NCBI GenBank assembly: GCA_030704615.1
Contig: CM060734.1
Location: 51,398,001-51,462,000 of the forward strand
Source: Takakia lepidozioides
Taxonomy: Eukaryota; Plantae; Bryophyta
DNA: 64,000 nucleotides
Direction of reading: 5' to 3'
This document shows positions 6,211-61,184 of this stretch, one piece after another. The position numbers were made by a program, and so were the translations under genes. The notes beneath the pieces are model-generated. The model worked only from the letters and a program-made list of their open reading frames with translations. It had not been told where the DNA came from and ran no database searches. Each line of letters begins with the position of its first letter. The stretch's first letter is position 1.

Positions 6211-6228
6211 CTTTGCTGCCCTCAACAG

Positions 6229-19480: not shown

Positions 19481-19939
19481 CTCTGAAAATAATTTAATAG
19501 TTATATTTGTAATTTTAAATTCTTAAATTTATATTTTATTTTTGAAAACATGGGATAGCAGCTTGGAAAATTGGTATTGTTGTTTAATTTAATAATATTA
19601 TACAAATAAAAATAGATTAAATGATTTAAACTCTTCATTACATGGTGAAATTCTGATATAAAAACAGGATGGACCCCTCTTGTATACTAGCAACCACAAG
19701 GACATTCAAAATAGACAAGTATAGGGGAATACACACCGTGTAAATTATATTACAAAAATCCAAATGAGACCAATGTCCCAATGGACATCTCAAAGGCCAC
19801 AAGGTCCCAAAATCCATGCTAAGCAAAAAATAAGCAAGCCCACACATGGGCTGAATTGTTGTAATACTAGTTTGTTCTGGTGCTACTAGAATCAAGGACC
19901 CTGTTAAACAGTGCAATACTTACGGCCGATTTGATAAGA

Positions 19940-33178: not shown

Positions 33179-33179
33179 C

Positions 33180-36100
33180 ATGGCTTCTTGGAACATCAGG
33201 GGCCTTGGGGCGGATAATGCTTCCCCAAAGCACGCTAGCGTCAAGTAGTTTCTAGCCCCTTATCTTCGGAAAGATGCAATTCTCTTCCTGCAAGAACACA
33301 AACTCGATCTAGGGAAAATCGCTTCTCTCTCAGACAATCTCTGGCCACGAGCAAACTCCCTATGGAAACCAACTTCTGAAGGTTCCAGAGGAGGCACCGC
33401 CATCTTGGTTTCCCCATCCCTCTTTCAATTTATTGTCTCAGAAGGCTCTTGGGTTCCAGGTAGAGTTCAGTACTGTGCCATAGACCTCCCAACCAACGGT
33501 GGCCGGCTGGGGTTAATTAATATCTATGCTCCGAACTCGCCGGCAGGAAGGGCTCAGCTCTAGGAGTCCATAAACACCAACATGAAACTAAAACAGGACA
33601 TATATTTCTGGATGCTGGCAGGGGACTTCAATATGGTTGAGTCTCCTTCCGACAGACGGGGTCTTGGTCAGTTTAACCTAGACGTGACAGAGACTCAACA
33701 CTGGCACTCCCTCACCCTCAACCACAATTTGGTGGAAATAGAAATGGTGAACCGGGGGCCTCCGCCCCCCTCAGGCCCTATCTTCACTTGGTCAAATAAC
33801 AGAGCCCTCGCCGATCTCCAAATGGCCAGATTGGACAGATTCTACGCCTCCTTGGACTGCATTCAATGGTCCCGGAGGCTACCTCAACAGCCCATCCACC
33901 CCGGCTTTGATCACGCCGTCATTGAGGCTTCATTGGATATTCCAAACACTCGCCCAAGGGGCAAAGGTCTTTACAAAATGAATGCCTCTCTGTTACAGAT
34001 CCCGTAGTTCGTACATGGCTTGCAGACAGCTTGGTCTTGGGCTGGCGCGGCCTTTCAGAACCCTTCAGATAGGTTCATGACCAAGCTCGTAGCGGTGGGG
34101 GCAGCTAGTCAGCAGATGAGTAGAGAGATTGCAGCCACTAGGAAAAGGAGGGTAGGGGCCCTCATCAAATGTCTCTCAGTCTGTCAAAGAAAAATGGAAT
34201 CTCCCCGCTGTGATCAGGAAACTTACGATACCTACCTGGAAGCAAAACAAAACTTGCAATTCTTCCAAGACCTGCAGGAGCAGAAGCTTAAGATGTCAAC
34301 AGGTGTTAACTGGTCATCCAAGGGAGAAAAAATGTCCAAGTATTTCTTTGCAAAAACCAGGCTTAGGAAGGCAGGGCAGACAATTTCTGAACTAGCTGAC
34401 AGAGCATCGGGACTGACATTCACAGACCCCAAACCCATGGTTTCATTCGCTGCCAGCCACTTTCAAACCCTCTTTAGGAGTGACAGGCCTGTAGAAGCAG
34501 CCATACTTGATGCTTGCTTGGCGCACTCCCCTCTTCTCATCGCCCCGCCTATAGTCAAGGCGGTGGAATTTTACAAAAACCTATGGCCTGACATCTCGCT
34601 TGACTTTGGGGCCATGGCCAACCACATCTTTCAGGCGAACCATATGCCAGGGAGCATGTCACAGGGAGTCATCTCTCTGATTTTCAAAAAGGGTGATAGG
34701 ACGGACTTAAGCAATTATAGGCCCATAACTCTCCTCAGTGTTGCTTATAAGATTATAGCCAAATGCTTGGCTCTACGTCTTCAGCCTCTGCTACCCTCAA
34801 TCATTAGACCTAGCCAGTCGGGCTTTATTAAGGGAAGATATATCATGGATAATATTCTTCTGGCACAGGAGCTTCCCTAATATGCCCTTCAAACACAGCA
34901 GGCGATTGTCCTAATCCTTCTAGACTTTGAGAAAGCGTTTAACAGGGTAGAATGGCCTTTCCTCATGGGCACCCTGACCAAGATCGGTGTGCCTCCCTCC
35001 TTTTGTCGATGGGTGCGCATTCTATTGAAGGGGTCAACCAGCAGGGTGATCATCAACGGTGCAGTGTCAATGCCATTCAACTTGTTTCGATCTGTCCGTC
35101 AAGGCTGCCCCTTGGCTCCTTTCCTTTTCATTATCGCCGCCGACACACTTGATTACATGCTACAAGCAGACACACAGATTCTGGGTCTTAGAATCACAAA
35201 CTACATAACTAATCAGCGTGCTTACATCAGGGAATCCATGTATGTAGATAATACTTTCCTTATGCTGCAAGCAAGCCAAACCAACCTGGACAGAACTGCA
35301 GCAACCTTGGAGAAGTTCTGCGAAGCTTCCGGTTTCAAGGTCAACTAGAACAAAACCTGTGCCATCCTCGCTGGTGATAAATCCAAATCCCTTCTGGGAC
35401 GAATGCCCTCTTGGGGCCAGGCCTGGGGCCTATCATGGCTGCAACCTAACCAGACGACAATGCTGCTAGGATACACCTATGGGCTGGATATCACCGATGA
35501 ACAATGATTCGCACCCATTCTTTCCAAGATTAAAAAAAACCTCACTTTCTGGGGCTGTAAGTTCCTCTCAATCACAGGTCGGGCACTTGTGGCCAACCAG
35601 ATTCTCTCAGCTGGCCTATGGTTCTACGCAACATCATGGCGCCCCTCTAAAAGGCAAATTGGAGAATATAAAGCCTTATTGCGGAATTTCATTTGGGGAG
35701 CTAGCAAAGTGGGCCAAAAAGTCAGGCCACAGGTCTCCTGGAGACAGATCTGCCAGCCAAAAAAACAGGGAGGACTGGGGGTTCTAGACCCGGAAATCCA
35801 AATTACAACACTCCTCGAAAAATGGCTGCCAAGATTCTTAGGCCCAGAAGGTGGCTGGTGGAAGTTTTTGGTGATGGGTAATCTGATGATGGCAAGTCCC
35901 CTAAAGACCTCTAGATGGCACCCCTCCATTCGCTGGATCACACAGGGATTCAAGCACAAAATGGTAGGATCGTCCCTTTGGAACGTCATCTGGAAAGCTT
36001 GGGCTACACTGAGACCTTTTCTTCGCAAAAAAGAGCCAGAAAAATTCGAGGAAACCCTCCACCAGCACCTTTTTTTGAACACCAACATGCCCACACAATC

Positions 36101-37382
36101 TGAAAAATTGCTAGCAAAAAAGTGGTTTGCCTGGGACAGCACGGGCATTAGTCAACTAAAACACCTGTGGTTGCCTACAGGCTTCCTACATATTGACACA
36201 ATCTGCCCTATTCTGGGGTCGATCAGAGCCAAGGCCGGGCTGCAGGCGGTCATAAATTCTACACCTCAAACCTGGTCCCTGTCGCTGCAGGCAGGACCAC
36301 TGACCCCCTCCACGAACTTCTGGACATTAGGAGTCATAAGCAACAGGCTCACCATCATTTTGGTGATTTCTGCCACGGATACTCACTTCTCAGGGTTCAC
36401 TTACCATATAAATCCCGAAACACTTGTGCTGACCTTGGTTTCGCACCCAAACCCTCTTCCCCCGTTTCTTTCATACCCCAGTGAGAATATGCAACTGGTC
36501 ATCTAAGTTCAAAGAGTTTGATCCCCAACCACCTCTTACCATGCCTGTCCTGTCCTGGCTCAATACCTCCACATTTGTTTGGATCCTGGGAAGACCTCTG
36601 GCGGACCTCCAGCTGGACCCCAAGGAATGGGATTGGTCCTTTGGCCGCATTGCATCACCCCTTCTTACCTACACCCCCAAGATGGCTTATAGGGCTCTTA
36701 ACAGACAGCCAGCCCTCTCCATTAAGTGGAATAGCAAATGGAGTCACTTTGGTTTCTTGAATGAGAACTGGTCAGCAATCTGGTCTTCCATCTGGCTAAA
36801 AATTAGGCCGGCCAAGATCTCAGCGTTTTTATGGCAAGTAGCGAACAGAGCCCTAAAAGTGGGAGAATGGCTGCAATTCCATGAAGCTCTTCTATGTCGA
36901 TGCTGCTCCTCGAGTATCATTGAATCTCATGAGCACTGCCTTCTGCCCTGTATTCTATAGACATTGGAGTCTCTCAAATATTGGCCCTCTGGATCTGCTA
37001 CTCAATTACAACAAAACAACCAAAGGCCGATCCTTTCCATGCCCGGTCTTCGAGACTCTTCGCGCTTCTACGTTTATGGCACCTATGGCGTGCTAGATAT
37101 AAAAAGACCTTTAGCAAGGAGACAATCAGTACCTCAGTTTTGTTGGCTATGGTGTACAAAGATCTTTTAATAGAGTCGAAAAAAGCTTGGGCAAAATGTG
37201 TTGCAGACTGTCATAGGACTCCAAGGCAGGCGCCAGCAATCCATGCATCATTCAGGACGACGTGGGCCTGCCATGGCGTCATTTGTCAAAGCGACGAGCA
37301 GGAACACTGCATTTGGAACACTCTCCCCCCTCAGAGCTGGAGAGACCTCAGAGCTCCACTCCACGGCCTCGCCGGAATTTGA
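33180..37382 (+). pseudogene. LINE ORF2 (AP endonuclease, reverse transcriptase, zf-RVT)
   Basis: SWNIRGL, FLQEHK, NIYAPN, GDFN, RLDRFY; NYRPITLL, QSGFIKGR, LDFEKAF, VRQGCPL, YVDN (degenerate YADD); CRCC..ESHEHC. Multiple stops and frameshifts. Confidence 0.93.
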
Positions 37383-39137
37383 GAGAGACGTGAACTGGAA
37401 ACACGTCAAGCACCCCGCCACTACTTCCAGGCTAAATTTTCGTTAAGTGTAGTTGTAGATTAGCTCCTCGATAATCTCAGCTGCAGGCTTAACTTTTTGG
37501 AAGTCTCTCGGTCAGGGCTAGGTTGTTGTGAGAGGTTCGCTCTCTTTCAGCACACTGCTGCACTTTAGCAGCAGGGAATGGATCTCCCTTCACTGACTAC
37601 AGTGTGTAGTCCTCATGGTGCAAAAGGGGTTTTATTTTTTTTCCCCTCGATCTGGAATAAATGCAATATTTAAAGTTAAAAAATACAATATATAAAATTA
37701 GGAATACTTAAATAACTAAATTTTAATATTAAAATATAAAATATTTTCCAATAAACAGCAATCAGTTATCAACGACATTAACCCTTAAGTTCCCATGCCC
37801 TTTTTTGACTTTTTACCAATTTTGGGTACCCAACTACAGTAAATTGCCCCTAGAAACCTACCAAAAATCATCCAGAGATTCCAGCCTTATAGTAGTGGGC
37901 CCAGCTCATTTATGCATGACATACCAAAAAATGAGCCAAGTCCATCGTGGAAATTGTGAGATTATAGCGTTCATAACATATATGTGGAAGTGCTAAAGTC
38001 TCCCTCAAACCTTGCCACTAGGAGCGTATCTAGCAATGAAAGATACTTTAAAACGTATCTTATATTGTGGGATGTTTGCACGAAACCTGTTGAACCTTCA
38101 ACAACCGGTCACAAAATCCAAAAATGACCGGCTCTCGCCGGTCATCCCTGTGCATGCCAAGGTATTTAATGCACTGCATTCAAACAATTCAAATGAAAAC
38201 ACTACATTATAATGACACCTAACCAGTACAATTGTTTGTCTTATTAACTTATCATAATGATGCACCATGCATACACACAAAAGTCAATGCGTATTAATGA
38301 TATCTCATCCACCTAATATGCAATGCATAACCATTTACCATCCAAAATCCAACGGCCGTTCCATTCCGTCCAACGGTGCATGTCCCTTACCATCCAAAGT
38401 CCAACGGTTGCACAACCATTTACCATCCAAAACCCAATGGCCATTCCATTCCGTCCAACGGTGCATCTCCCTTACCATCCAAAGTTTAACGGTGGTTTGC
38501 AACGGTGCACGCTTGCGTCCAACGGATGGTAGTCTTTACCCAATGGACGATAAATTTTAATAGATCTTTCATAACATTAATTGCTAGGGGCTAATTGCAC
38601 ACTATAAGAATTGCAAGCCCTCACATACCACCTACGTAAGTGGTTGTGGGTTCAATCCACCCTTGGTGTCACAAAGGTGTCCACCTTCCTAATGGAAGAC
38701 AATAACCCTTCGGGATGAAGAGACGCCATAATTTATGCTTCCTTCGGGAGGCGTCAAATATTTAATATTTAATATTATGAATCAAACAATACTTTTAGGG
38801 TTTAGGCGATATCATGGATCAACCCTTTCATTACTTTATTACTGATTGTATTGAGTCCATATACCTCCAATGATATGTGAACGACTTAAAATATATATTA
38901 TCAATTGAATGGGCATTTGTTCGAGCATGGTCAGTGCACCTATTCAATAGTTGCTTGAATATGTAAAATGTTACATATTCAATGTTGGATGGGACACGAT
39001 GAATCTCATTCATTCTCTGGTTCGAACCAGTATTGTACTGGTATGTCCATTTTAACATACCAGGCTGGTCATGGTATGCCTAATGGACCTTTAAGGCCAA
39101 TATGGTAGAGCCCAGTGCAGATCCACAGTGGCCGCGT

Positions 39138-39465
39138 TGTCAAGTTATTTTACCACTAGTGTGAAAACTAGCTAGGAAATAGCTAGCTTTTACATATTGA
39201 CATTTGGGATTGGCCCAAGTGTCAATCCAGGGGTCAAAGCAGATTTAGGCCCTGGAGTGGTTATCTTCACGGCAAGCGCGGGAGGCTCATCTTTCTCGAG
39301 TTGAGCCTCACCGCGCCTAGCTATGGCGCCGTAGTGTGGATTCCCCATGGCGTGGGGTGCACTTGGCTTGACTTGTATTTGAGTGATGAGGTTATATATG
39401 CATGAGTTTATGCTTCAGCTTTGTGAGCTCGCATGAGCTTGTGCTTGTATTCTTCTTCTTTATCA
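39138..39465 (+). repeat. Terminal repeat A1 (matches A2 51177-51503; one extra A noticed)
   Basis: tgtcaagttattttaccac...ttcttctttatca present twice. Confidence 0.95.
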
Positions 39466-39482
39466 CTCGAGAAAGATGAGCC
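39465..39482 (+). promoter_or_regulatory. Self-priming primer-binding site complementary to repeat A
   Basis: ACTCGAGAAAGATGAGCC is the exact reverse complement of GGCTCATCTTTCTCGAGT (39284-39301). There is no TGG-starting tRNA PBS. Confidence 0.85.
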
Positions 39483-41004
39483 CGTATCTATGAGTGCTAG
39501 ATACGAGTTAGTTGTAGCACTTGTGGTTTTTGCTTGAGAATGAGAGAAACCAAGTTGTTATGCAAGGAGCACCGTGGAGCTCTTGGTTATTAGAAGCGGA
39601 GGCGATGTGGGTTACGAGGTGGTAAACCTTGGCATTCGATCTTCAGCTTCATAGATGAAAGCACCATACTGTAGGTAATTCCAGAGCACCTTGATGGTTT
39701 CAGATTGTGTACATGCATGAGCAAGCACGATTGGGAAGAGGACCAGTCAAGAGCAGGTTATAGTGGCTTTGGTGGCAAAGCTGAGAACTGGACTTGGGAA
39801 TGCGAGCTGTCATTGTGTGAAGGATTGCAAGACCAAGCGAAAGGGCTGATTTGGCTTGGGGCAAATCAGTGCACTTTGTGGAGTATGGTGAGATTGGGTT
39901 TCAATCTCGAGCTTCAGCATTGAGAGGGCTCTTGTCATGGCAAGAGCAGGGCTGGAACAGGAGCTAAGAGGTGCGGCAAGGCCATGGAATGTGCACCTAG
40001 GGTTTCAGAGCTTGGAAGAAGAGCTCTTGCACCACAAGAGAAGTGTCTTGTGGCTGGAAATGTAAGCCTTAGGGTTTCAGGAGCTTGGCAAGGGCTGTGG
40101 AGTGCTTAGTCTTGTCTTAGAGAGCATCAAGGAGCCAAGGAGCCAAGATAGGGGGCTGATATCTCTTGTGTGAAGAGGTTGCATGTGTGGAGCATGTATT
40201 CAGCTCATTGAAGCTTCCATCTTCAAGCTTGGAGGGCAAGCAAGGAAGAGGGAAGGGCTGACTTCCCTTATGTGAGGGCAATGTATGTGTGGAGCATGCT
40301 ATCAGCCTGGTGAAGGCTTGCACTTTTAGGTGTGGGAGTGCAAGAAAGGAAGGAAGGGGCTGGTTTCCCTGTAGGGCATGTAGAGCATGCTTTCAGCCTG
40401 CTGAAGCTTGTATTATCAGGTTTGTGGGTGCAAGAAATGAAGCAAAGGAGCTGATTCTCTTATGGTGAGAGTGGGGCATGTGTGGAGCATGCCTTCAGCC
40501 CATTGAGGCTCTTGTTTTCAAGCCTTAGAGAGCTAGAACGGAAGGTCTAGGGCTGGTTTCCACTTGGAGTGAAAGAACAGCACTTGTAGGGCCTATGTGA
40601 GTTGGGGTTTCAACTTCAAGCTTGAAGGGAGCGCAACTCTTGAAGCAACAGGTGTAGAGGGCTGGAATAGGCTCTAAGACAGATGCTATGGCCAATGAGG
40701 GGAGTGCTTGAATGAGTGCTCACAAGGGCTGGGAACCAGCAGGGCTTGGTTGTTTGCCATTGAGTTTAGTGGCGTGTTTGGGGAGGCTAAGTGAGAAAGA
40801 AGGCTTGGTTTGTGGCAACCACCTCATGGCTTAGGGCTACTATGGTGGTGTGTGGGAGCCGAAAGAGCAAGGATACCTTGCTGATTTCCTCACAGCCACC
40901 ATAGCTCGGTGGAAAGAAGCCTAGAGTCCAAGAGACACAAACCCTAGCTTGGCGTGGCTAAACCCCTTGGAGAAATGGCTAAACTGCCAGAGCGGCCATG
41001 TGTG

Positions 41005-43110
41005 GGGCTGTGACAGGTTGTGGCAAGCTGTGACGGGCTGTGGCAAGCTGTGACAGGCTGTGATGGGCTGTGTCAGGCTGTGACAGGTTGTGCCCAGTGG
41101 CCTTTGGGGCTGTGACGGGCTGTGCGGGGCTGTGACAGGCTGTGCCCTGAGGCCTGTGGGCTGTGACGGGCTGTGACAGGCTGTGCCCAGTGGCCTGTGG
41201 GGCTGTGACGGGCTGTGACAGGCTGTGATGGGCTGTGATGGGCTGTGACAGGCTGTGCCCTGTGCCCTGTGGGGCTGTGACGGGCTGTGTCAGGCTGTGA
41301 CAGGCTGTGCCCAGTGGCCTTTGGGGCTGTGACAGGCTGTGCCTGAGGCCTTTGGGGCTGTGACGGGCTGTGAGGGGCTGTGACAGGCTGTGCCCTGTGC
41401 CCTGTGGGGCTGTGACGGGCTGTGTCAGGCTGTGGCGAGCTGTGACGGGCTGTGCGGGGCTGTGACAGGCTGTGCCCTGAGGCCTGTGGGGCTGTGACGG
41501 GCTGTGACAGGCTGTGGCGAGCTGTGACAGGCTGTGCCCATGGCCTTTGGGGCTGTGACGGGCTGTGACAGGCTGTGCCCAGTGGCCTGTGGGGCTGTGA
41601 CGGGCTGTGACAGGCTGTGGCAAGCTGTGACAGGCTGTGATGGGCTGTGATGGGCTGTGACAGGCTGTGCCCTGTGCCCTGTGGGGCTGTGACGGGCTAT
41701 GTCAGGCTGTGGCGAGCTGTGACGGGCTGTGACGGGCTGTGACAGGCTGTGCCCAGTGGCCTGTGGGGCTGTGACGGGCTGTGACAGGCTGTGGCAAGCT
41801 GTGACCGGCTGTGATGGGCTGTGACGGGCTGTGTCAGGCTGTGACAGGCTGTGCCCAGTGGCCTTTGGGGCTGTGACGGGCTGTGCGGGGCTGTGACAGG
41901 CTGTGCCCTGAGGCCTATGGGGCTGTGACGGGCTGTGACAGGCTGTGGCGAGCTGTGACAGGCTGTGCCCATGGCCTTTGGGGCTGTGACGGGCTGTGAG
42001 GGGCTGTGACAGGCCGTGCCTGAGGCCTTTGAGGCTGTGACGGGCTGTGAGGGGCTGTGACAGGCCGTGCCCATGGCCTTTGGGGCTGTGACGGGCTGTG
42101 AGGGGCTGTGACAGGCCGTGCCTGGGGCCTTTGGGGCTGTGAGGGGCTGTGAGGGGCTGTGACAGGCCGTGCCCATGGCCTTTGGGGCTGTGACGGGCTG
42201 TGAGGGGCTGTGACAGGCCGTGCCTGAGGCCTTTGAGGCTGTGAGGGGCTGTGAGGGGCTGTGACAGGCCGTGCCCTAGGCCTTTGAGGCTGTGACGGGC
42301 TGTGATGGGCTGTGGCAAGCTGTGACAGGCTGTGATGGGCTGTGATGGGCTGTGACAGGCTGTGCCCTGTGCCCTGTGAGGCTGTGACGGGCTGTGAGGG
42401 GCTGTGACAGGCCGTGCCCATGGCCTTTGGGGCTGTGACAGGCTGTGAGGGGCTGTGACAGGCCGTGCCTGGGGCCTTTGGGGCTGTGACGGGCTGTGAG
42501 GGGCTGTGACAGGCCGTGCCCATGGCCTTTGGGGCTGTGACGGGCTGTGAGGGGCTGTGACAGGCCGTGCCTGAGGCCTTTGAGGCTGTGAGGGGCTGTG
42601 AGGGGCTGTGACAGGCCGTGCCCTAGGCCTTTGAGGCTGTGACGGGCTGTGATGGGCTGTGGCAAGCTGTGACAGGCTGTGATGGGCTGTGATGGGCTGT
42701 GACAGGCTGTGCCCTGTGCCCTGTGAGGCTGTGACGGGCTGTGAGGGGCTGTGACAGGCCGTGCCCATGGCCTTTGGGGCTGTGAGGGGCTGTGAGGGGC
42801 TGTGACAGGCCGTGCCCATGGCCTTTGGGGCTGTGAGGGGCTGTGAGGGGCTGTGACAGGCCGTGCCTGAGGCCTTTGGGGCTGTGACGGGCTGTGAGGG
42901 GCTGTGACAGGCCGTGCCCATGGCCTTTGGGGCTGTGACGGGCTGTGAGGGGCTGTGACAAGCCGTGCCTGAGGCCTTTGAGGCTGTGAGGGGCTGTGAG
43001 GGGCTGTGAGGGGCTGTGACAGGCCGTGCCTGAGGCCTTTGAGGCTGTGACAGGCTGTGAGGGGCTGCGACAGGCTGTGCCCAGTGGCCTGTGGGACTGT
43101 GACGGCCTGA
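41005..43110. repeat. About 2.1-kb minisatellite of roughly 10-bp GGCTGTGA(C/G/T)(A/G) units with higher-order periodicity, in the retroelement leader
   Basis: Seen directly. Confidence 0.97.
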
Positions 43111-43848
43111 CCAGTGAGCTGTGTGGGCCTGTGCTGGTCTGTGGTGGCCCGTGTTGACCTGTGGACGGCCTGTGCTGACTCGTGGAGGCACTGGTGGACT
43201 GCCTAAGGACTGGCATGTGGTCTGGAAGGCCAAATTTTGAAGCTCGTGGAGGGCGGTTTGAGGAGTATCTTCATGATATTCCCATGGTCATGCAAGTGAG
43301 GATAGAGAGGAGAGGCAGAGTGTTGGGATGAGAGCATGCTGGGGTTAGGCATTGCTTTAGCTTCTCTTCCTCGTAGTTTCCACCCTCTCATTAGGCCAAG
43401 ACCTTTCCGTAGGTGGAGGCAAGAGTCAGTCCGGGTTTGGGCTGGGGTGTCCTTGCAGGAGCAACACCGTGGAGTTGTTTTTGGTGTGGGGGAGTTGTCG
43501 ATCTGATTTCTTGTGTTTGGATCCCCTCCATACCTGCATGCTTGATTGTGCGCCATGCTAGTTTTGTGTGGGCGCTTGTTTTTATAGGTGATTGGTCCGG
43601 ATTTGATCACCGGCCAGTCCTAGAGCATGCTGTCGATGGTGAGGCTGGGGTGATGACCAGCCAGACCATCATTGTTTCTCCTGTGGTGAGGTTGGAGGTG
43701 ATGACCAGCCAACCATAGGAGTGCTTGTGGTGGATGCAGGTACAGGTGTAGGCTATGTTAGGAACTTAGTATTCCAAACCATAAGCCGCAACAGGTTCTC
43801 TACCCGGTTACCTTGTGAAGAGGGGGTTAGGGACATGTTCATGACCGG

Positions 43849-46502
43849 TTGAGTGTCAACACGGAGGTGCCACTAGTTGCTGGGGACAGTGCCGGTTCGA
43901 GCACTAGCGATACTAGTGGGTACACGAGACGAGGTGTGCGGTTTAGGCCACCTTCACCTCCTGTGTCTTCTACGGAAGGTTCTGATTCGGATTGTGAATC
44001 GGGAGGACTCATACCGGCGGTGCAAGTTGTTTCTTTGCCATTGTTGTGGACACAATGGAGGAGATGTATGGAGCTACCAAGGGGCCACGAAGGTACTCTG
44101 GGGCGGTGGGCACCATTGAGTTGGATGATTTTATCCAAGAGTTTGATAGTTGGTGTGATTTGCAGCAAATGCGCAATCCACAACTATTTACGCCGTTCAT
44201 GGCATGGAAAGGGCTGTTTCAGCACCTTGAGGGGCCGCCTATGGATGATTACCATGAGTTCAGGCGGGGGCATGAGGTTGAGATCGAGGAGTGGAGGATG
44301 TACTGGTCACCCGACTATGTCTCCATCACTAGGGGCACTAGAGCCACGAGGGCAGTGGCTACACCTGCCGCTGCACCGGCAGCTTCAGCAAGCAGCAGTG
44401 GGACTGGTGGTACAGTAGCTACGACGTCCACCCAAGCCACTACCGCACCAGCACTAGCACCCGTGCCTGCCTTCAACCCTGTCGTGGAGTTCTTCGAAGA
44501 GTTGAGAGGGAACTACCAAGAGGTGAGGACAGAGAAGTTGCGGAGCTTGCAAGAGTTCCAACGGAAGCTGACCGAGAGCTTGAGGGAGGCTTTCACTCGC
44601 ATGAGGCGCTTGATAAATGTAACCCAAGGGGTTACGGAAGCTCAGGCAGTCCAATTCTGGTATGGGATATTGGACAAGGAGCTGAGGAGAAGGGTGCGGG
44701 ATGCAACTCTCCTACAAGCGGCCCAACCCACCTTAGCAAATGTGTTTTTGCTGGCAGAGCGGATAGAGCTCAACATGGTGGAGGAACGAGTGGTCATGGT
44801 GGGATTTGCTAAGGAGACACCACGGGGTAGTGGTGCTCCTAGCCAACCACCACCTCAACGTGCTCAAGGCAACAAGGGGGCTCAGGTGAAGCTCAGGGAA
44901 GGGCAGAAAGGACCTCAGATGCAGGGGTCTCTCCCTTCATTTGCTGGCCAACAACGGGCGGATGTGGTGTGCTGGACATGTGGAGGACCCCATGTCAAGA
45001 AGGATTGTCCAGAGGGAGGCAAAAGGGCCGCACATGCACAGCCTGCCACAGTTACAGTGTGGGCATTGTGGCAACACGGGCATGGAGAGGCTCAGTGTTA
45101 TGGTTTGCATCCTGAGTTGCGCCCAGGCCAGTTCCAAGGGAACAATGGCGGGGCGAGGGGCGGGGGGAGAGTGGAGCAGCCCAGAGGACGAGGTGGCCAG
45201 CCACGAGGTGCAGGCCAAGGGCAAGCTCAACGTGGCCAAGGACGCGGAGGTCAGGGTGTTGACCAAGGCATGGCCAACCGGCTTCAGCAGCTAGAGCAGA
45301 GGCTCGCTGCCATGGCTACAGCTCAGGTGGTACCGGCTCTAAGGCCGGATGGTCCACCTCCTGCTCCTGAGGGAGGAGATATGGGAGGCATGGGATTCAT
45401 GTGTGGAGCAGCACTACCACTAGTGCAGGTGGAGTCTGCTGCAGCCGTGACTCGAGGAGCAGCACGAGTTCCTGAGCCACGAGGTGCAGAGGTGGAGTTG
45501 GATCCACAGCGTGGGGAGGCAAGCCGTCAGGCTAGGCTTCCTCAGTCATTCACATTGGCGGAGACAGTGTCGACGCCATCCATGGCACCTAGTTCTCGCC
45601 CGACTGTTACGACGAGAGCGGAGGTCACTATGCCATTGGGGAGAGCTACACGGGTAGCACCACTACCTAGTGTTGCCAAGGCTATGGCAGCTAGTGTGCT
45701 GCTAGGAGCGGCCACATCTGTGTGCCAGGCTCCATTGTTCTCGGCTACCATGATTGCGACGCCGGGGGTAAGACCAGCTGAGGTGTTCAGGCTGGCAGCT
45801 ACACTCTGTGAGAGTGGGGAGGTTACTTCATCTTCTGCGGAGATAGTGGGAGGTGTAGTGCCGGAGGGATCCTCGGATTTGAGGGTCAAGACTGCCACGG
45901 CGGCGCCATGGCAAGCTGCAGCTGCCAGGTTGATGGAGCTGCCAGCTAGGCCAGCCATTGAGCGCGCCATGGTGACACCTGGAGTTGTCATGTTAGACAA
46001 CCAGGATGGCATTTTCTGTTTGATGGACCGGCAGGCAAAGAGGTACCGGCCACTGCGAGTCTTGTTGGACTCGGGAGCTCAGCCACTGATGTTGGGCAGA
46101 GCTGCTATTGCAGGCTTGGGCCTCACGGAGGCGGATATGGAGCCTTGTCCTTTCCAGATACAGACGTCTCTCGGAGGATCGGAGCAGGCTCGGGGCATGA
46201 CACGGCATGAGTTAGCTATCAGACTACGGCCGGATCACCCTACAGATGGCTCAGTGATGCAAGCCAAGGCCATTGTGACAGACGCAGTCTCATACGATGT
46301 CCTGGTTGGTGGGGCAGTGTTGTACCCCATGGGCTTCACCCTGGATTTTTGGGAGGAGTCAGCTTCCTATAGGCCTGCATGGCAGTCAGGGGAGGGCCGG
46401 CGTGTGCAGCTCCCTGTGACGTTCATAGGAGGAGTTGCGGTTGCCCAGCGAGGCAAGATGCCGACACTAGCAGCATTCACAGCGGGCAGTGAGTTGGCCT
46501 AG
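43849..46502 (+). pseudogene. Gag plus aspartic protease
   Basis: Gag-like ELDDFIQEFDSW...QEFQRKLTESLREAFTR; knuckle CWTCGGPHVKKDC; RG-rich linker; protease VLLDSGAQ...YDVLVG. Frameshift near 44040. Confidence 0.88.
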
Positions 46503-46779
46503 AGAGTTGCTTGAGGGCAATGCTCATTCAGAGGATGTACCACCTTCGGGGAGAGCAGGATGACATGTATGGTATGGCGGAGTTGCCTACCATGGTTGCT
46601 CAGACTCCATTGTGGGGCACGAGCAAGGATTTGCAGCGGGATGCTGATCGACGGGTGCAACAAGCCTGGGTGGAGGCTTTTGTACCGTCAGGAGAGGAGG
46701 AGAGTGTGGGGATTGCACCAGGACCACCTCAATTGTCTCCATTGGACACCACACCTATTGTGTGGCAGTCTCCGGATGA

Positions 46780-47729
46780 AGGCATTTGTCTTCTGGACTT
46801 GTTTGCGGGATCAGCACCGGATTGGCTGCTGTGTTACAGGCAGGTGTACGAGTTCGGCGTTACCTGTATGTGGAGAGGGATGAGACTGCACGACGCGTTT
46901 CACTTCGCCATGTTGCTCAGTTGGTTGCTCAGTTGCGTGAAGCGTACCCTGAGTTGTTGTCGTGTCTGCAATTCGTGGATATCAGCAGGCCTTGCCAGCA
47001 GATATTTCGTTGCTGGGGGCGCAGGATTTGGAGCGGGTTGGCTCCATTGATCTGGTAGTGGCAGGTTGGCCCTGCCAAGGGCATTCATCAGCCGGGCATG
47101 GCAATGGATTGCGAGACTCGAGGTCGGGTCTGTTTTGGGAGATGGTGCGGGTTTTGCGCCACTTGCAGCTTCATCAAGCTGTATCTCCAGCATACATCTT
47201 GGAGAATGTGCCACTGATGGGCAATTCTCGGGCCAGGGTGATGGCCAGTGTGCATCAAGTCCGGTCGTGGCTTGGGTCAGCAGTGTTGCTGGATGCAGCT
47301 ACAGTGGGGTCACGGGCTCATCGTCCACGGCTATGGTGGACTAACATGATGCCACCCGCACTGCTCAAGCGTGCATTTGATGGGGTGCAGCGGCCAGCAC
47401 ATCTCACAGTGGATAACATTCTGGACACAGGGAGGCAGTCTCAACGTGTGAGACATGATGACCGTTCGCCTTTGGCAGTGGTCAACAAGGTGGGTCAACC
47501 ACGAGCAGCATTACCTACACTGCTCAGCTTCCCAGGATCGCATGCTTTCCGGGATAGTGGACCTGGCCTCCTGTGGGATGCTCAGTTGCAGCAGTTAGTG
47601 GAGCCTAATGCTGACGAGCGTGAGCGGGCAATGGGTTTTACCACTGGTACCACGGCGGTGTCGTCTCTTTCTGAGGCATCACGTCGTCAAGTGTTGGGGC
47701 AAGCAATGGATCTCAATTGCTTGACCTAG
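46780..47729 (+). pseudogene. DNA (cytosine-5) methyltransferase domain within pol
   Basis: Motif I LLDLFAG(ISTG), II YLYVE, IV DLVVAGWPCQGHS, VI YILENV, VIII AHRPRLW, IX ERERAMGF, X VLGQAM. Two 1-nt frameshifts (about 46810 and 46960). Confidence 0.93.
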
Positions 47730-48193
47730 ATTATCAGCTTGGCTCTAGCTGAGCAACGCAGAGTGCGGAATACACTTCCCTCAATGGTCTCTCTGCCTAC
47801 CGAGACGGTACAGGCAGTGAGTGGGGGCGAGCATATGAGGACCACGGGGTGCATGCATCCATGGCACACGTGGGAGGTGCTCGAGGTTCAGAGGGAGTTG
47901 GCAGCCAAGGCGGCTGTGATGGATGAGGTTGGGGATTCTTCTCGAGTTGAGGAGGTCCTCAAGGATGAGATGATGGGGCAGGATGATGCCTTGTCATTGA
48001 CTGAGCAGGTAGGGAGTACTGCTCAAGAGGTTGCAGCATAGCAACCACGGGACGCGTCCTCTACCTCTAAGCCCACTGGACTTAAGGTTGTAGTTACGGA
48101 GGACAATTGGGAGCCTGACATTGGACCCATTGTCACCGGAGGAGACGTATACGGCGGTTCCTGAGGGCTTACAGGAATTGCTTTGCCTTCAGT

Positions 48194-50032
48194 TTGAAGG
48201 ACTTGGGAGCACTGAAGGGTCAAAAGATCCGTATTGAGTTGGCCACTGACACGCCAATCTTTCGGAGACCCTATAGATACAGTGACATGGAGAGGTCTTT
48301 GATTCAGATGAGGACTCAAGATCTCTGGGAGGCAGGTTTGGTGGAGCTCTCTGGTGGAGAGTATGCTTCAGCCACAGTGATGCCAGCCAAGAAGGATGTC
48401 TATGGCAATTGGACGGAGAGATGTATGTGCGGTGATTACCGGCCTGTAAATCGTCAGACCAAGTCCGATAAGTATGCCATGCCAACACCAGAGGAGATCT
48501 TTGATGCCATCGGGCATGCTAAGGCCTTTAGCACTTTGGATTTACGATCCGGATATCACCAGTTGCCAATCAAGGAGGCGGACAAGCAGAAGACGGCATT
48601 CTGGGGGATCAATGAGCACGGCAAGGATTGCCTATATCAGTGGCGGTTCTTACCATTTGGGCTTAAGAATGCTCCTGCAGAGTTTCAGAGAGTCATGGAT
48701 AGGATTCTAGCAGGGGTGGACTTTGCTCGGTGCTACATAGATGACATCATCATCTTTAGTGTTACGATGGAGGAGCATGAGAGACACCTTCAGGTGGTAT
48801 TGGAGCGCTTGAGAGCGCACGGATTGAAGTTGCATCCGGGGAAGTGCAAGTTTTTCCACAACCAGATTGAGTATCTGGGTCACATGATATATCCTGGAGG
48901 ATTGGGGGTACAGCAGACTAAGGTAGAGGCCATTGCACAAATTCCACGCCCCACGGATGTGAGCCGAGTTCGAGCGTTCATGGGGTTGGCAAACTATTAT
49001 AGACGGTTTGTCAAGGGATTTAGTACCATTGCAAAGGCTCTAACCAAGCTGACCAAGGTGGACCAGGAGTGGCAGTGGGAAGATGAGCAGGAACGAGCTT
49101 TTCAAGAGCTCAAGGCGAGGTTGACCTCGGCGCCTATCTTGAGACGACCTATCAGGGGGCGTCCCTTTCAGCTGCATACGGATTGGAGCATGCTGGGGCT
49201 TGGAGCGGTGCTCACACAGGTGGATGATGAGGGAAGAGAGTTCGTAGTGGCTTACGCTAGCCGCTCGAACAACGCTGCAGAGGCTAAGTACAGCTCATAT
49301 GAGGGAGAGTGCTTAGCTGCAGTGTGGGCCGTGGCACACTTCAGGTGCTATCTATACGGCAATCTTTTCACCCTTGTCACGGATCACCAGCCACTCAAGT
49401 GGTTGATGGAGTCAGACAAGCTTACAGGGAAGCTTGCACGGTGGGCACTTATACTCCAGGAGTATGACTTTCAGGTTGTGCATCGACCGGGTTTGGTCAA
49501 TCGGGATGCGGATGGATTGAGTCGCAATCCATGCATGAGCCAGCAGGATGACACTGGAGCTCGGTGGCATGGTGAGACGGACGAGGAGATGGTGCCGGGA
49601 TGGCACGCATCTGCATTTTTGTGTATCTTGGCATCGGGAGGTCAGATTGGACCTACAACAGGGATGACTGTAGACAGAGTGTCTGAGGACCCTGAGGCTA
49701 GTGATGAGCTAGGTGGTGCCAGAGATATACATGAGGATTCGGCTGTGTTGGACTACCTCCGCACGGGAGACACGGCAGCCATTGTGACTGCCAGGGAGAG
49801 GGATCGGATCCTGCAACGAGCCAAGAGGTTCAAGTGGGAGGGGATACACCTACTTCGAGTGTGGGAGGGTGGTCGGGTGAGGATTGTGCCTCACCCCACA
49901 CAGCGTGCACGGTTAGTGCGGCATGCCCATGAGGAGTTGGGGCATTTTGGAGTGCGACGCACTCACAGTTTACTGCAGGGGCAGAGTATTGGTGGCGTGG
50001 TATGCATACAGAGGTGCAACAGTTGTGGCTAG
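48194..50032 (+). CDS. Reverse transcriptase, RNase H and start of the integrase Zn domain
   Basis: CGDYRPVN, LDLRSGYHQ, LPFGLKNAP, YIDD, YLGH; LHTDWS, EGECLA, TDHQPL, DADGLSR; HEELGHFG. Confidence 0.96.
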   Translation: MKDLGALKGQKIRIELATDTPIFRRPYRYSDMERSLIQMRTQDLWEAGLVELSGGEYASATVMPAKKDVYGNWTERCMCGDYRPVNRQTKSDKYAMPTPEEIFDAIGHAKAFSTLDLRSGYHQLPIKEADKQKTAFWGINEHGKDCLYQWRFLPFGLKNAPAEFQRVMDRILAGVDFARCYIDDIIIFSVTMEEHERHLQVVLERLRAHGLKLHPGKCKFFHNQIEYLGHMIYPGGLGVQQTKVEAIAQIPRPTDVSRVRAFMGLANYYRRFVKGFSTIAKALTKLTKVDQEWQWEDEQERAFQELKARLTSAPILRRPIRGRPFQLHTDWSMLGLGAVLTQVDDEGREFVVAYASRSNNAAEAKYSSYEGECLAAVWAVAHFRCYLYGNLFTLVTDHQPLKWLMESDKLTGKLARWALILQEYDFQVVHRPGLVNRDADGLSRNPCMSQQDDTGARWHGETDEEMVPGWHASAFLCILASGGQIGPTTGMTVDRVSEDPEASDELGGARDIHEDSAVLDYLRTGDTAAIVTARERDRILQRAKRFKWEGIHLLRVWEGGRVRIVPHPTQRARLVRHAHEELGHFGVRRTHSLLQGQSIGGVVCIQRCNSCG

Positions 50033-50727
50033 GTGCATGGTGTGTGACAGGGTGCGTGCTTCATTCAACGCCCCTACACCACAGTTGCATCCTTTACCTA
50101 TCATGGGATTGGGCTACAGGTGGAGTCTTGACTTCGCAGGACCGTTGCCACTGACTATGCGCCACCACAGATATGTGTTGGTGATGGTGGAGCACTTCTC
50201 CAAGTGGATTGAGTTGGTTCCATTGCCTGACAAGGCTAGTGGGGGCTGCGTATGCATTCTTGGATCGTGTGCTTAGCCGATTTGGTGCTCCAGCTGAGGT
50301 ACTCACGGACCAAGGGAGAGAGTTCTTGGGGGAGTTTCAGGCTTTGTGTGATAAAGCCTTGATCGACCACCGCACCACTTCTCGGGATCATCCTGAGGCC
50401 GATGGCTTAGCAGAGAGAGTTGTTCAGACGGTGAAGAGGGGTTTGCGCAAGTATGGCTTGCAGAAGGGACACCTAGGAGATTGGGATCTTCAGGTTCCTT
50501 GGTTAGCCATGGGCTACAGGTTCAGCAAACAAGCATCACTTGCCTCCTTCTCACCATATTTCCTTCTCTTTGGCCGAGAGCCGGATTTGCCTGCAGCCAT
50601 TCGTAGGGACACTGCTCAAGTCCTTAACCTTGACGATCCGGACGTGTGGGTACGTGCATGTGATCAGCGTGCAGAGTTGTTCAAGAAAGTCATGCCCATG
50701 GCTTTTGAGAACCTTGCCATTGCATAG
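49923..50727 (+). pseudogene. DDE integrase, frameshifted, C-terminal tail deleted
   Basis: H..H / CMVC zinc motif, SLDFAGPL, VLTDQG, DGLAER, SPYFLLFGR; ends abruptly at ENLAIA*. Confidence 0.92.
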
Positions 50728-50975
50728 TGGCAGTGGACATGACTGGAGGCAGCTAACAAGACATGGGAGGCCAAGCTCATAGGAGTCAATACATGAGATC
50801 CCAAGCTCAAGTTCACAGGTTGCAAGACGGCGACTAACGATGGGGCAACTCTTGCACCCGGCCTCTTGATCTATCGAGTTTGAGTGTAGTAGGGATAGTG
50901 GTGGAGGACTTAGTGAGGCTATGGTCACTATCACATCTTGTGGCTACCTGGACTTAGAGGGACCTAAGCACAGCT

Positions 50976-50985
50976 AGGGGGGCGA
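50976..50985 (+). promoter_or_regulatory. Polypurine tract
   Basis: AGGGGGGCGA immediately before repeat B1; the same tract is at 25783-25792 in the sibling. Confidence 0.85.
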
Positions 50986-51692
50986 TTGTGTGGACTAGTG
51001 ACTGCCATAGTGGGCAGTGTAGTGACAGCCTAGTGACTGACTAGTTGTAGCCTAGTGGTTGGACTAGTGGCTAGACTAGTGGTAGACTAGTGGTATACTA
51101 GTGTGTGGTGTGCACATGTGTTGTGTGGTTTTGGACAGCGATGTAGTTGTGTAGCGATATGTATGCGCACGACAGCTGTCAAGTTATTTTACCACTAGTG
51201 TGAAACTAGCTAGGAAATAGCTAGCTTTTACATATTGACATTTGGGATTGGCCCAAGTGTCAATCCAGGGGTCAAAGCAGATTTAGGCCCTGGAGTGGTT
51301 ATCTTCACGGCAAGCGCGGGAGGCTCATCTTTCTCGAGTTGAGCCTCACCGCGCCTAGCTATGGCGCCGTAGTGTGGATTCCCCATGGCGTGGGGTGCAC
51401 TTGGCTTGACTTGTATTTGAGTGATGAGGTTATATATGCATGAGTTTATGCTTCAGCTTTGTGAGCTCGCATGAGCTTGTGCTTGTATTCTTCTTCTTTA
51501 TCATTGTGTGGACTAGTGACTGCCATAGTGGGCAGTGTAGTGACAGCCTAGTGACTGACTAGTTGTAGCCTAGTGGTTGGACTAGTGGCTAGACTAGTGG
51601 TAGACTAGTGGTATACTAGTGTGTGGTGTGCACATGTGTTGTGTGGTTTTGGACAGCGATGTAGTTGTGTAGCGATATGTATGCGCACGACA
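50986..51692 (+). repeat. Right terminal structure B1 (50986-51174) - GC - A2 (51177-51503) - B2 (51504-51692)
   Basis: B1 and B2 are 189-bp direct repeats. The B1/A2 junction is the palindrome GACAGCTGTC. Confidence 0.95.
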
Positions 51693-52226
51693 GCGTGGAT
51701 AGGGTAGATGGCTTGTACGAGTATTCATATGTGGGACATACCCTGATCCTAGGCATGAGTAAGTCAAATTTTAAATGAAGATACTAGGTCTATATATGCA
51801 AGTGTATGGTATGACAAATTAGGAGTATATATTATGTATGTGTAAAGATAGGATATGTAGAGAATGATTTCTTCATTTTTTTTGGAATTAAGATATAGTG
51901 TTATTTTCTACATTAATGCACAAATGTGAATGAGGATAAGCACAAATAAATTGTATCGTTACACATACCCATGCTAGCTTGGGTTCATCAATCCTCAATA
52001 CAAGACTGAAGGAGTATGAAAATAGTCCATACTTATAGTGGTATGGTAGGTAGGGAGTAGGTCCACTGTTCAACATCCGGGGGTATAAGGTATAGTCGGG
52101 GTATAAGCCCCAAGACATACCCAACCGGTATGTTCTACAATACCCTTATTTATACTCATACTCATCAATTCAATATTCTCATGTTGTGTGTTTGAATCGT
52201 GTATTTCTTCTTAATTTTCCTATAAG

Positions 52227-53049: not shown

Positions 53050-55130
53050 AGTGTGAATCTTTGCACGAGCAAGTAACGCCTACATTCATACGTTCTACAA
53101 TACCATATTAAACCATAAAAATCATTGCACTCGTGAACTTAGAAACCACGATCCATATGATTTTAGTTGGATTTGAAACTTTACATGAGCAATTACCACC
53201 TACATTTTTAGGTCCTACAACAATATCGTGTACAACAAAAATGGTTACACCAGTGAACTTAGAAAACGTCGTCCGTACGATTTTGGATTTGAAACTTTAC
53301 ATGAGCAACTAACACCTACATTCATAGGTCCTGCAACAATATCATTAACAACAAAAATGGTTATACCAGTGAACTTAGATAATGCTGTCCATACGATTTT
53401 AGTTGGATTTGAAATTTTACATGAACAACTAACACCTACATTCATAGGTCCTGCAACAATATCATGAACAACAAAAATGGTTACACCAGTGAACTTAGAA
53501 AACGCCATCCGTACGATTTTAATTGGATTTGAAACTTTACATGAATAATTACCACCTACATTCTTAGGTTCTGCAACACTCTACAACAATATCATGAACA
53601 ACAAAAATGGTTACACTAGTGAACTTAGATAACGCCGTCCATACGATTTTAGTTGGATTTGAAACTTTACATGAGCAAATAACACCTACATTCATAGGTC
53701 CTGCAACAATATCATGAACAACAAAAATGGTTACACCAGTGAACTTAGAAAATGTCATCCGTACGATTTTAATTGGATTTGAAACTTTACATGAGCAACT
53801 AACAGTTACATTCCTAGGTCCTGCAATTATATCATGAACAACAAAAATGGTTACACCAGTGAACTTAGAAAACGCCGTCCATACGATTTTAGCTGGATTT
53901 GAAACTTTACATTAGCAACTAACACCTTCATTCATAGGTCCTACAACAATATCATGAACAACAAAAATGGTTACACCAGTGAACTTAGAAAACGCCATCC
54001 GTACGATTTTAGTTGGATTTAAAACTTTACATGAGCAACTTACACCTTCATTCATAGGTCCTGCAATAATATCATGAACAACAAAAATGGTTACACTAGT
54101 GAACTTAGAAAACGCATCCGTACGATTTTAGTTGGATTTGAAATTTTACATGAGCAATTTACACCTACAGTCCTAGGTCCTGCAACCATATCTTGAACAA
54201 CAAAAATGGTTACACCACTGAATTTAGAAAACGCTGTCCATACGATTTTAGTTGGATTTGAAACTTTACATGAGCAACTTACACCTTCATTCATAGGTCC
54301 TGCAACAATGTCATGAACAACAAAAATGGTTTCACCACTGAACTTAGAAAACGCCATCCGTACGATTTTAGTTGGATTTGAAACTTTACATGAGCAACTT
54401 ACACCTACATTCCTAGGTCCTGCAACCATATCATGAACAACAAAAATGGTTACACCAGTGAACTTAGAAAACGCCGTCCGTACGATTTTAGTTGGATTTG
54501 AAACTTTACATGAGCAACTTACACCTATATTCCTAGGTCCTGCAACCATATCATGAACAACAAAAATGGTTACACCAGTGAACTTAGAAAACGCCGTCCG
54601 TACGATTTTAGTTGGATTTGAAACTATACATGAGCAACTAACACCTTCATTCATAGGTCCTGCAACAATATCATGAACAACAAAAATGGTTACACCAGTG
54701 AACTTAGAAAACGCCATCCGTACGATTTTAGTTGGATTTAAAACTTTACATGAGCAACTTACACCTACATTCATAGGTCCTGCAACAATGTTATGAACAA
54801 CAAAAATGGTTACACTAGTGAACTTAGAAAACGCCGTCCATACGATTTTAGTTGGATTTGAAACTATACATGAGCAACTAACACCTACATTCATAGGTCC
54901 TGCAACAATATCCTGAACAACAAAAATGGTTACAACAGTGAACTTAGAAAACACCATCCGTATGATTTTAGTTGGATTTGAAACTTTACATGAACAACTA
55001 ACACCTACATTCCTACGTCCTGCAAAAATATCATAAGCAACAAATTTCATTACACCGACATATTTAGAAAACACCATTTGTATGATTTTAGTTGGGTGTG
55101 ACACTTTGCACCAGCAATGAACATGTACAT
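53050..55130. repeat. 120-bp tandem satellite, about 17 units
   Basis: Unit aacaacaaaaatggttacaccagtgaacttagaaaacgcc...ggtcctgcaacaatatcatg; the edge units are more diverged. Confidence 0.97.
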
Positions 55131-60600: not shown

Positions 60601-61184
60601 GACGGCGTGAAGTTCTTCTACATGAGATATTCATTACAATCTGCGGTTCAAACCCTCCTGATTAGGTGACATGAAACAAACTACCACTGTGATATCCAAC
60701 TAAGAAATACCAATCCCAGTGGGATTCATATCAACAGCTCCGTGGCTCTTTGATGTAGTACCCCTAACTGCCAGTCAAGCGAGAGCCAGAGGGATGGATT
60801 CGTGGAGTTTCACCCACCTTGTATGTGCAAGTCATCTTGAAGTTGCCATAGCGCTCCTGCACAACCACAACAATCTGATTACAGGAAGTAAGAGCCGATA
60901 TAGACATCATGCAGGAAATTAACTAGCCCTCGGTCCAGCCACTTGAGACTGCCCTGTAAGAAAATTGCTGCCCGTGTGCTCTTTCACTTGTGACAACAAT
61001 GCCTTGTCTCTACCTCCACCTTGGTTTCAGGCCTGCTCCACTATGCCAGACGGACAGTCACCTATTCATTCGGACTTTTATAAACTTGACATTTCAAGAC
61101 ATGTCTCCTCTTGAACGCAGTAAACTGAATGGCTGCAAAGGTAGAAGCTTACCTTTTACAGCGTCTGATGAATCATGAGAGGGC

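Follow-up and report, generated by a model that had tools for sequence, protein, structure and literature searches.

A Ty3/Gypsy retrotransposon family of land plants that encodes a DNMT3-like methyltransferase ahead of a conserved stop codon

The 64,000-nucleotide stretch of the Takakia lepidozioides genome analyzed here, hereafter the window, contains a Ty3/Gypsy retrotransposon of 12.6 kb (39138–51692), bounded by split repeats in the order A...B-A-B, that encodes a DNMT3-like C5 DNA methyltransferase. The first frame of this element, Gag-protease-DNMT, closes at a conserved in-frame stop, and the RT-RNase H-integrase-PHD part follows in the same frame. The position of the DNMT at the end of the Gag-protease frame before a conserved stop and the derivation of the element ends from an internal palindrome are new, and the range of such elements extends to land plants. 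We favor, with a probability of about 0.55, a reading in which a particle-borne DNMT methylates the new cDNA before its insertion, combined with readthrough of the stop and opening of a cDNA junction.

The methyltransferase domain is located at 46780–47729 on the forward strand, like the other oriented features of the element, and is interrupted by two frameshifts and a premature stop. An earlier note on this DNA had described a compact DNMT with motifs in canonical order, and this description holds. The stop-to-stop frame 46953–47729 matches PF00145 (51.4 bits for a cut-off of 22, E = 1.5e-13), and motifs I to X succeed one another in order. Motif I (approximately 46790–46820, split by a frameshift) and motif II (YVERDE, 46867) lie in two other frames directly upstream of 46953–47729, and are followed by motifs IV (GWPCQ, 47064), VI (ENV, 47202), VIII (RAHRPR, 47313), IX (ERERAMGF, 47616), and X (GQAMD, 47697). 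In agreement with the same note, no chromo, BAH, or UBA domain was matched in the eight window frames scanned against Pfam. An atlas search with the DNMT domain returned generic C5 methylase clusters. Other copies were examined in 80 metagenome loci (L numbers) and in public sequencing runs (X numbers).

By profile and by modeled fold, this C5 methyltransferase is DNMT3-like. A 20-sequence profile compared with solved structures scored 92 bits with DNMT3A and 83 with DNMT3B, 49 and 37 with DRM, 35 with HaeIII/HhaI, and 22 with DNMT2; neither DNMT1 nor CMT was among its 56 matches (E ≤ 1). In a further search, all 29 matches were DNMT3A/B/C. The model predicted for the uninterrupted DNMT domain of L030 (pLDDT 96.3, pTM 0.93) resembles DNMT3A (TM 0.72, E = 3.6e-20), and the 31 rows listed in this comparison are all DNMT3A/B/C. 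Among 63 aligned relatives, the catalytic Cys, the motif VI Glu, and the motif VIII Arg are each conserved in 61, and motif IV reads PCQ in 43 and is of the ECQ type in 17. The hallmarks of a C5 methyltransferase (motifs I to X in order, catalytic Cys, ENV Glu, and RxR) are therefore present, whole in the relatives and broken in the window copy, as are those of the DNMT3 family, the nearest in sequence and fold, with motifs unrearranged. The earlier contrast with the plant enzymes MET1, CMT, and DRM omitted the host DNMT3 of non-flowering plants. The host DNMT3 of non-flowering streptophytes carries a DUF3444 tail (PMC6453930), and this host family is the likely source of the DNMT of the element.

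Sequence comparison indicates that the DNMT domain is under purifying selection between subfamilies. In a Nei–Gojobori analysis of 28 pairs, a check proposed in the earlier note, dN/dS was far below 1 in seven between-subfamily pairs (0.09–0.25); synonymous sites were saturated in 10 more pairs, six of them with the window copy (pN 0.17–0.35). Within a decayed family of copies that we call moss-type, dN/dS reached 0.40–0.81 for the DNMT (11 pairs) and 0.32–0.62 for the RT (four pairs), values that correspond to post-insertion decay and were excluded as a test of selection. Between L030 and L050, the DNMT is less constrained than the RT (0.107 vs. 0.030). CpG depletion was considered as a sign of self-methylation and rejected, as two other elements of the window have lost at least as much CpG (observed/expected 0.44 and 0.38) as the element itself (0.49–0.63).

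The boundaries of the element were defined by self-comparison of the window. Repeat A1 (39138–39465), which starts with TGTCA and ends with CA, forms the left end and is 99.7% identical to A2 (51177–51503), with one indel. Repeat B1 (50986–51174), ending with CACGACA, is identical to B2 (51504–51692), which forms the right end, and two bases separate B1 from A2. The B|A junction is a palindrome, GACA-GC-TGTC (51171–51180), whose halves are the two termini of the element; it is retained in L002, L019, L021, L043, L062, L030, L050, L074, and L080. A 4-bp target site duplication (TSD) flanks the insertion (39134–39137 and 51693–51696), and a contig of run X2 corresponds to the empty site, joining 39133 to 51693 with four shared letters. 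Together they indicate a recent insertion with exact ends. The 5′ leader contains a tandem array (41006–43105; 10-bp unit with a 51/102-bp higher order, Tandem Repeats Finder), spanned by other copies in runs X1, X2, and X9. The 10-bp unit closes with TGACA, which occurs 46 times and is also the word at the A-side terminus; the moss-type family has no array of this type and a leader of about 1.2 kb.

A protease upstream and an RT downstream of the DNMT, as claimed previously, were both found. Gag and the aspartic protease (44055–46502, frame broken near 46500) give weak Pfam matches (E = 0.043 for the protease, which is 42–63% identical to its relatives), and the Gag-protease part is 51% identical to Marchantia Mp4g09160 over residues 1–758. 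RT, RNase H, and a DDE integrase occupy 48048–50727 (frame span 48119–50727), with three frameshifts and without the C-terminus and PHD finger, and match RVT_1 (E = 2.8e-33), RT_RNaseH (E = 5.8e-36), and rve (E = 2e-5). In L030, rve is above the cut-off (51.9 bits) and the integrase carries a PHD finger (PF00628, E = 2.6e-10). The statement that the DNMT is embedded in pol is imprecise: a conserved in-frame stop at 48039 splits it from the RT, and the DNMT ends the Gag-protease frame. A polypurine tract (50972–50985) directly precedes B1; its motif also precedes B in the second window copy, in L030, and in the moss-type family. A diverged 3′ remnant of a second subfamily lies at 25239–26317 (+), with an integrase tail, a PHD finger, a polypurine tract, and B′-A′-B′ repeats. 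The order protease-RT-RNase H-integrase with a DDE (rve) domain, the TSD, the polypurine tract, and the primer site are those of Ty3/Gypsy elements; two identical terminal LTRs are not found, the ends being A and B of a split repeat.

The window copy is dead. The two frameshifts previously reported lie inside the DNMT domain, but they are not the only lesions. Frameshifts are found near 46500, 46805, 46965, 48150, 49985, and 50240, three of them in the RT-integrase part, a premature stop is found at 47727, and the integrase C-terminus and PHD finger are lost after 50724. The stop at 47727 is absent from 98–99% of the read depth in runs X1 and X2. As several indels fall in single-base runs and are not common to many other copies, some may be assembly errors. 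Over 39138–51692, the repeats are near-identical yet the coding breaks are many, as expected if a defective copy moved in trans or if long reads erred in single-base runs. The family is plainly abundant: in run X2, the summed contig depth over the coding part is 0.7–1.3 million versus a few hundred at the flank, depth not being copy number. With many homologs and 80 metagenome loci in addition, the domain is not restricted to this copy; such a restriction was what the earlier note had named as a refutation.

The window also contains a decayed gag-bearing retroelement with a zinc knuckle (6225–7253, −), a decayed Gypsy RNase H-integrase (15293–17200, −), and a decayed LINE-like RT (32098–36503, +). 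One or more decayed PLS-type PPR genes (19900–22780, −) show 303-bp repeats (2.5 copies, 95% alike), stops, and frameshifts. PLS-type repeats of this period suggest that the host is likely a non-seed land plant, a point on which the extended range does not rest. A satellite with a 120-bp unit (15.9 copies, 89% alike) covers 53133–55044, and a 385-bp tandem repeat (3.5 copies) at 59276–60601 has pieces in common with the flanks of the PPR repeats (approximately 19930–22930).

We surveyed the stop between DNMT and RT in the 55 of the 80 metagenome loci in which the end of the DNMT and the beginning of the RT are both visible, and in the window, where the stop was set by hand. An in-frame stop followed by CARYY, 129–150 bases before the RT, is present in 51 of these 56 loci, the chance of such a match being about 0.001 per site; the context is absent from L031, L041, L048, L060, and L063. 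The full CARYYA motif occurs in five loci: CAACCA in the window and L012, CAGTTA in L030 and L032, and CAATCA in L050. The 46 loci with CAACCC/T all belong to the one moss-type family and lack the final A. In 14 of them TAA replaces TAG, likely by decay, and an ATG two codons past the stop allows re-initiation in this family. In neither the window nor L012 is the conserved beginning of the RT preceded by an in-frame Met. The window site (TAG CAA CCA, 48039–48047) shows no variant at or above 15% in runs X1, X2, and X15, and positions 48010, 48015, and 48036 vary. In L030, uninterrupted frames of 1369 and 1047 codons flank the stop. Marchantia frames of 1278–1281 aa end about 97 residues past motif X, without an RT.

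This stop is likely read through, as its context suggests. CARYYA is a known readthrough context (PMC3441728), and the tobacco mosaic virus (TMV) context gives 6–10% readthrough in stable plant lines (PMC2754532). The type I (TMV-type) signal UAG-CAR-YYA, with the same amber codon and hexamer, stands in frame between coding regions in the window, L012, L030, L032, and L050, and 46 more loci match at five of the six bases (PMC2754532, PMC3441728). The element differs from the type I systems in that its stop follows protease and DNMT and not gag, and in the CAACCC of the moss-type family. The location of the DNMT ahead of a likely leaky stop predicts that it is made in Gag-like amounts, with RT and integrase at about one-tenth.

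Sequence complementarity fits Tf1-like self-priming of the element RNA. The 17 bases directly after A1 (39466–39482), the predicted primer-binding site, are the exact reverse complement of 39284–39300 inside A, a stretch that is likely the RNA 5′ end and would act as the self-primer. A complementary pair of different sequence is found in the moss-type family, with 15–16 of 17 positions in five of 16 decayed loci (16/17 in the L043 group), 13–14 in three, and values no better than the control in eight, and a third pair, of 16 nt, is found in L030. Complementarity to the own 5′ sequence, exact over 17–18 nt in the window, is thus provided by three sequences over the subfamilies. The z-score of the folded stretch (−7.6) is biased, because the stretch was chosen to begin at the pairing site. 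Self-priming is known from Tf1/Sushi elements and the plant Tcn1 chromoviruses, in which the primer site matches the own LTR and not a tRNA and whose hosts reach the moss level (PMC6317226). These elements carry a chromodomain, which had no Pfam match on the L030 integrase, in place of the PHD finger, DNMT, and split repeats found here. Priming by a tRNA was rejected on a tRNA gene search only, which found no such gene in the 64-kb window.

The positions of the primer site and of the polypurine tract make B+A the functional LTR, yet insertions start at A and end at B. Inserted copies read A-internal-B-A-B (window, L033, L043, L062, and L069/L072) or A-internal-B, with TGTC...GACA ends. Among nine distinct insertions with both ends in view, the 4-bp TSD is exact in seven and shows one mismatch in two. 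The A-internal-B form, in which tract, B, and flank follow one another without A2, was seen at nine loci (TSD exact in L022 and L073) and may represent single-LTR products, B-B recombinants, or short-read collapse. The palindrome GACA-NN-TGTC is present even in L074 and L080, which have the second domain layout described below. The A|B joint is precise in eight of the 11 cases shown, retains part of the primer site in L052/L059 (one insertion), and contains filler and tract-flank bases in L062. As such primer-site scraps are expected from end-joined cDNA, they suggest integration from joined cDNA. None of 20 5′ ends (about 16 distinct) has B upstream of the 5′ A (A-B-A-internal-B), which disfavors a plain 2-LTR circle and suggests a directed step somewhere, such as a jump of one strand from end to end. 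In the model of the retroviral 2-LTR circle junction, integrase would likewise cut a two-fold symmetric junction for both ends; that route has been disproved for retroviruses, which insert linear DNA (PMC11054761). In the present element, the symmetric site falls within the LTR, and its insertions have a permuted appearance.

In the mechanism that we propose, a minority of ribosome passes would read through the stop, giving a DNMT excess of about 10:1 over RT and integrase, and the DNMT would be packed into the particle at Gag-like amounts. The RNA would prime itself by pairing of its 5′ end with the site after A1, and plus-strand synthesis from the polypurine tract would give a linear [B-A]-internal-[B-A] cDNA by the standard pathway. 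Once the cDNA ends had been linked at an A|B joint, cleavage of the GACA-NN-TGTC palindrome by the DDE integrase would produce the inserting ends. The DNMT, released by the protease, would methylate the cDNA, most likely at CG, and the new copy would arrive pre-marked, either hidden from host surveillance or self-damped. Bulk production of the DNMT fits a particle role better than action at a single target site. Several observations count against parts of this scheme: for cDNA methylation, the negative yeast assay of the Klebsormidium domain, the lack of extra CpG loss, and the weaker constraint on the DNMT than on the RT; for readthrough, the concentration of 46 of the 51 contexts in one moss-type family without the last A and the five of 56 loci without the context; for the joined-cDNA route, the lack of A-B-A-internal-B among 20 ends and the eight precise joints of 11; and for self-priming, complementarity at the control level in eight of 16 decayed loci.

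Instead of free cDNA, the target of the DNMT might be the insertion site or host chromatin, with the integrase PHD finger taking part in the guidance. The PHD finger found in the family (L030), the chlorophyte layout, which places a fused DNMT between RNase H and integrase (54 of 287 proteins), and the unremarkable CpG content of the element are compatible with this; since in the layout of the window element the DNMT is produced along with Gag, ahead of the stop, and not with the integrase, we regard such a role as unlikely. Less probable still is that Pol arises from re-initiation or from a splice that uses the AG of the conserved TAG, the DNMT amount being set otherwise than by readthrough. 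A pyrimidine run before the TAG and the nearby ATG in the moss-type family would suit these routes, as would the single open frame from protease to integrase of P0125 and P0273. Between subfamilies, however, the six downstream bases vary within the limits of CARYYA, which a splice site does not need. The 14 copies of the decayed family with TAA also speak against splicing, in so far as they are not products of decay, which is likely, and so, weakly, does one contig, from a run guessed to be RNA, that crosses the stop unspliced.

It is also conceivable, though we give it little credence, that the DNMT belongs to the integration machinery and marks the CpG by the B-side end (CGACA), so that the integrase tells the junctions apart or accepts the end. 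Two bases inside the B-side GACA, a CG is conserved in the window, L030, L050, L074, L080, and the moss-type family, the A-side end being TGACA, and the opening is asymmetric (0/20), but plain integrase specificity could account for the conservation of this CG. Finally, the domain could bind nucleic acid or methylate RNA without a role on DNA, or be a passenger, in line with the yeast result for the Klebsormidium domain (PMC5890265). The conserved catalytic residues, the purifying selection, and a fold nearest to DNMT3–DNA complexes, with DNMT2 scoring far lower, make this highly improbable. Methylation of the cDNA by a particle-borne DNMT remains our preferred reading. A broader version, in which an ancient Gypsy lineage spread over the green plants has a DDE integrase that opens the palindrome of end-joined cDNA and a Gag-level DNMT3 whose mark at the CpG adjoining one end licenses or directs the cut, is doubtful at present.

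The closest known system is KnitGypsy-Dnmt3 of Klebsormidium nitens, with which the window element likely forms one clade. The earlier note had named the Klebsormidium kind of retrotransposon-borne DNMT, and the likeness is borne out: both have Gypsy domains, an intronless and unrearranged Dnmt3-like domain, DIRS-like A-coding-B-A-B repeats, and purifying selection on the DNMT (PMC5890265). They differ in that DNMT and RT form one frame there according to the authors, whereas a conserved stop in the same phase separates them here, readthrough of which would join DNMT to RT; the host is an alga there and a land plant here. De Mendoza et al. (2018, PMC5890265) regarded the capture as particular to the K. 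nitens lineage, whereas the relatives found here span liverworts, moss, Closterium, and chlorophytes; PHD, target site, Marchantia, and Physcomitrella are never mentioned in the main text of that paper. In yeast, the Klebsormidium domain produced no methylation, a result that its authors consider inconclusive, and two Symbiodinium retro-Dnmt3 domains performed de novo CG methylation (PMC5890265). SymbioDIRS-Dnmt3 also combines a Dnmt3 domain with A-coding-B-A-B repeats in a retroelement, but relies on a DIRS tyrosine recombinase and not on a DDE integrase with 4-bp target duplications (PMC5890265). A DIRS/PAT identity was rejected for the window element, as TSDs are present and no recombinase was matched in eight window frames or in the two frames filling L030. 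Gypsy-7a_cRei of Chlamydomonas is another green-lineage Gypsy with a PHD finger, and DNMT is not among the domains listed for it (bioRxiv 2022.06.16.496473). A 2025 paper of the same group cites streptophytes and dinoflagellates as earlier-reported hosts (PMC12344493). In the literature searched, which leaves out most subscription papers and Repbase, we found no published report of the land-plant family, the stop signal, or the junction.

From 5740 candidates, 117 longer homologs were listed: 19 from Marchantia polymorpha, two each from Calypogeia fissa, Sphagnum, and Closterium, one under a Chrzof1 identifier, which we take to be Chromochloris, and most of the remainder metagenome proteins. 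In an exhaustive search, 190 clusters passed E ≤ 1e-30, a number that rose to 611 with the threshold at 1e-10. Close relatives in Marchantia, Calypogeia, and Sphagnum show 66–74% identity, and the near-full-length matches in the first two 61–74%. Further relatives emerged from the RT search, namely Riccia sorocarpa, a transcript of Coleochaete scutata (68%), Klebsormidium nitens (44–45%), and Volvox. No vascular plant is named among the matches listed in the DNMT and RT searches (117, 120, and 120 rows), and no named Klebsormidium DNMT is among the homologs listed. The extension to land plants anticipated earlier is borne out by records assigned to Marchantia, Calypogeia, and Sphagnum, which lie on multi-megabase contigs. 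Algal contamination, considered as a source of this range, was rejected, as these liverwort and moss records carry the family on contigs of 8–49 Mb. Five annotated M. polymorpha models of 1278–1281 aa are whole Gag-protease-DNMT frames, four of which match all seven motif patterns. Marchantia copies P0543, P0544, P0545, and P0548 have Mp_Vg (male sex chromosome) gene identifiers. Two element proteins were deposited under bacterial labels, P0023 and P0486 (Obscuribacterales and Synechococcales); P0023 matches L030 at 94%, and both are likely mis-binned eukaryotic contigs rather than gene transfers.

Two domain layouts are distinguishable. Protease-DNMT precedes the RT in the window element, the bryophytes, and the Closterium group; the order RT-RH-DNMT-IN-PHD, which occurs in chlorophytes, characterizes 54 of 287 proteins, Scenedesmus among them. 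Either one capture with relocation or two captures may explain them. RT matches without DNMT are mostly a separate second frame or fragments, and some relatives (P0125, P0273) have a single frame from protease to integrase. P0112, with a DNMT of the same kind, an N-terminal PHD finger, and a PF12237 match, represents a third layout. In L078 (1–9862), a stretch of 3.3 kb that includes RT-RNase H recurs exactly as a direct repeat, spaced by 6.56 kb, which reflects either tandem copies of a second-layout element or a loop in its assembly. Trees of the RT-RNase H and DNMT domains both place the window copy with liverwort and moss sequences. In the RT-RNase H tree (68 of 184 rows kept after thinning; quick IQ-TREE with SH-aLRT support only), the window copy forms a group with Marchantia, Calypogeia, L012, and L020 (99), which Coleochaete joins next (83), followed by L030/L050 (100). 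One 46-member clade (95) contains all 42 second-layout rows, and two Klebsormidium RTs fall outside the land-plant/Coleochaete clade at an open fork. The DNMT tree (89 of 314 rows, with six phage sequences as sole outgroups) recovers the same land-plant clade (100), including Sphagnum, and the second-layout clade (95). The agreement of the two trees indicates that DNMT and RT travel together. A phage or bacterial source of the DNMT was rejected: 12 viral loci match over short stretches only (32–53%) and form the outgroup of the DNMT tree.

The capture of a DNMT by Gypsy elements looks far older and wider than a one-off event in Klebsormidium. Elements of this kind can inflate DNMT gene counts in bryophytes, and LTR finders that expect two identical terminal repeats would likely miss them. 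Intact copies may be among the hypothetical host genes annotated in the Marchantia reference genome. The permuted ends suggest a route of integration that is accepted for no DDE-integrase LTR element in the literature searched, and the conserved, likely leaky stop predicts a particle-stage role for the DNMT. Why retrotransposons keep an enzyme that silences them has been a puzzle since 2018, in part because the known hosts are difficult to handle. The whole Gag-protease-DNMT frames of M. polymorpha move this question to a genetic model with methylation mutants.
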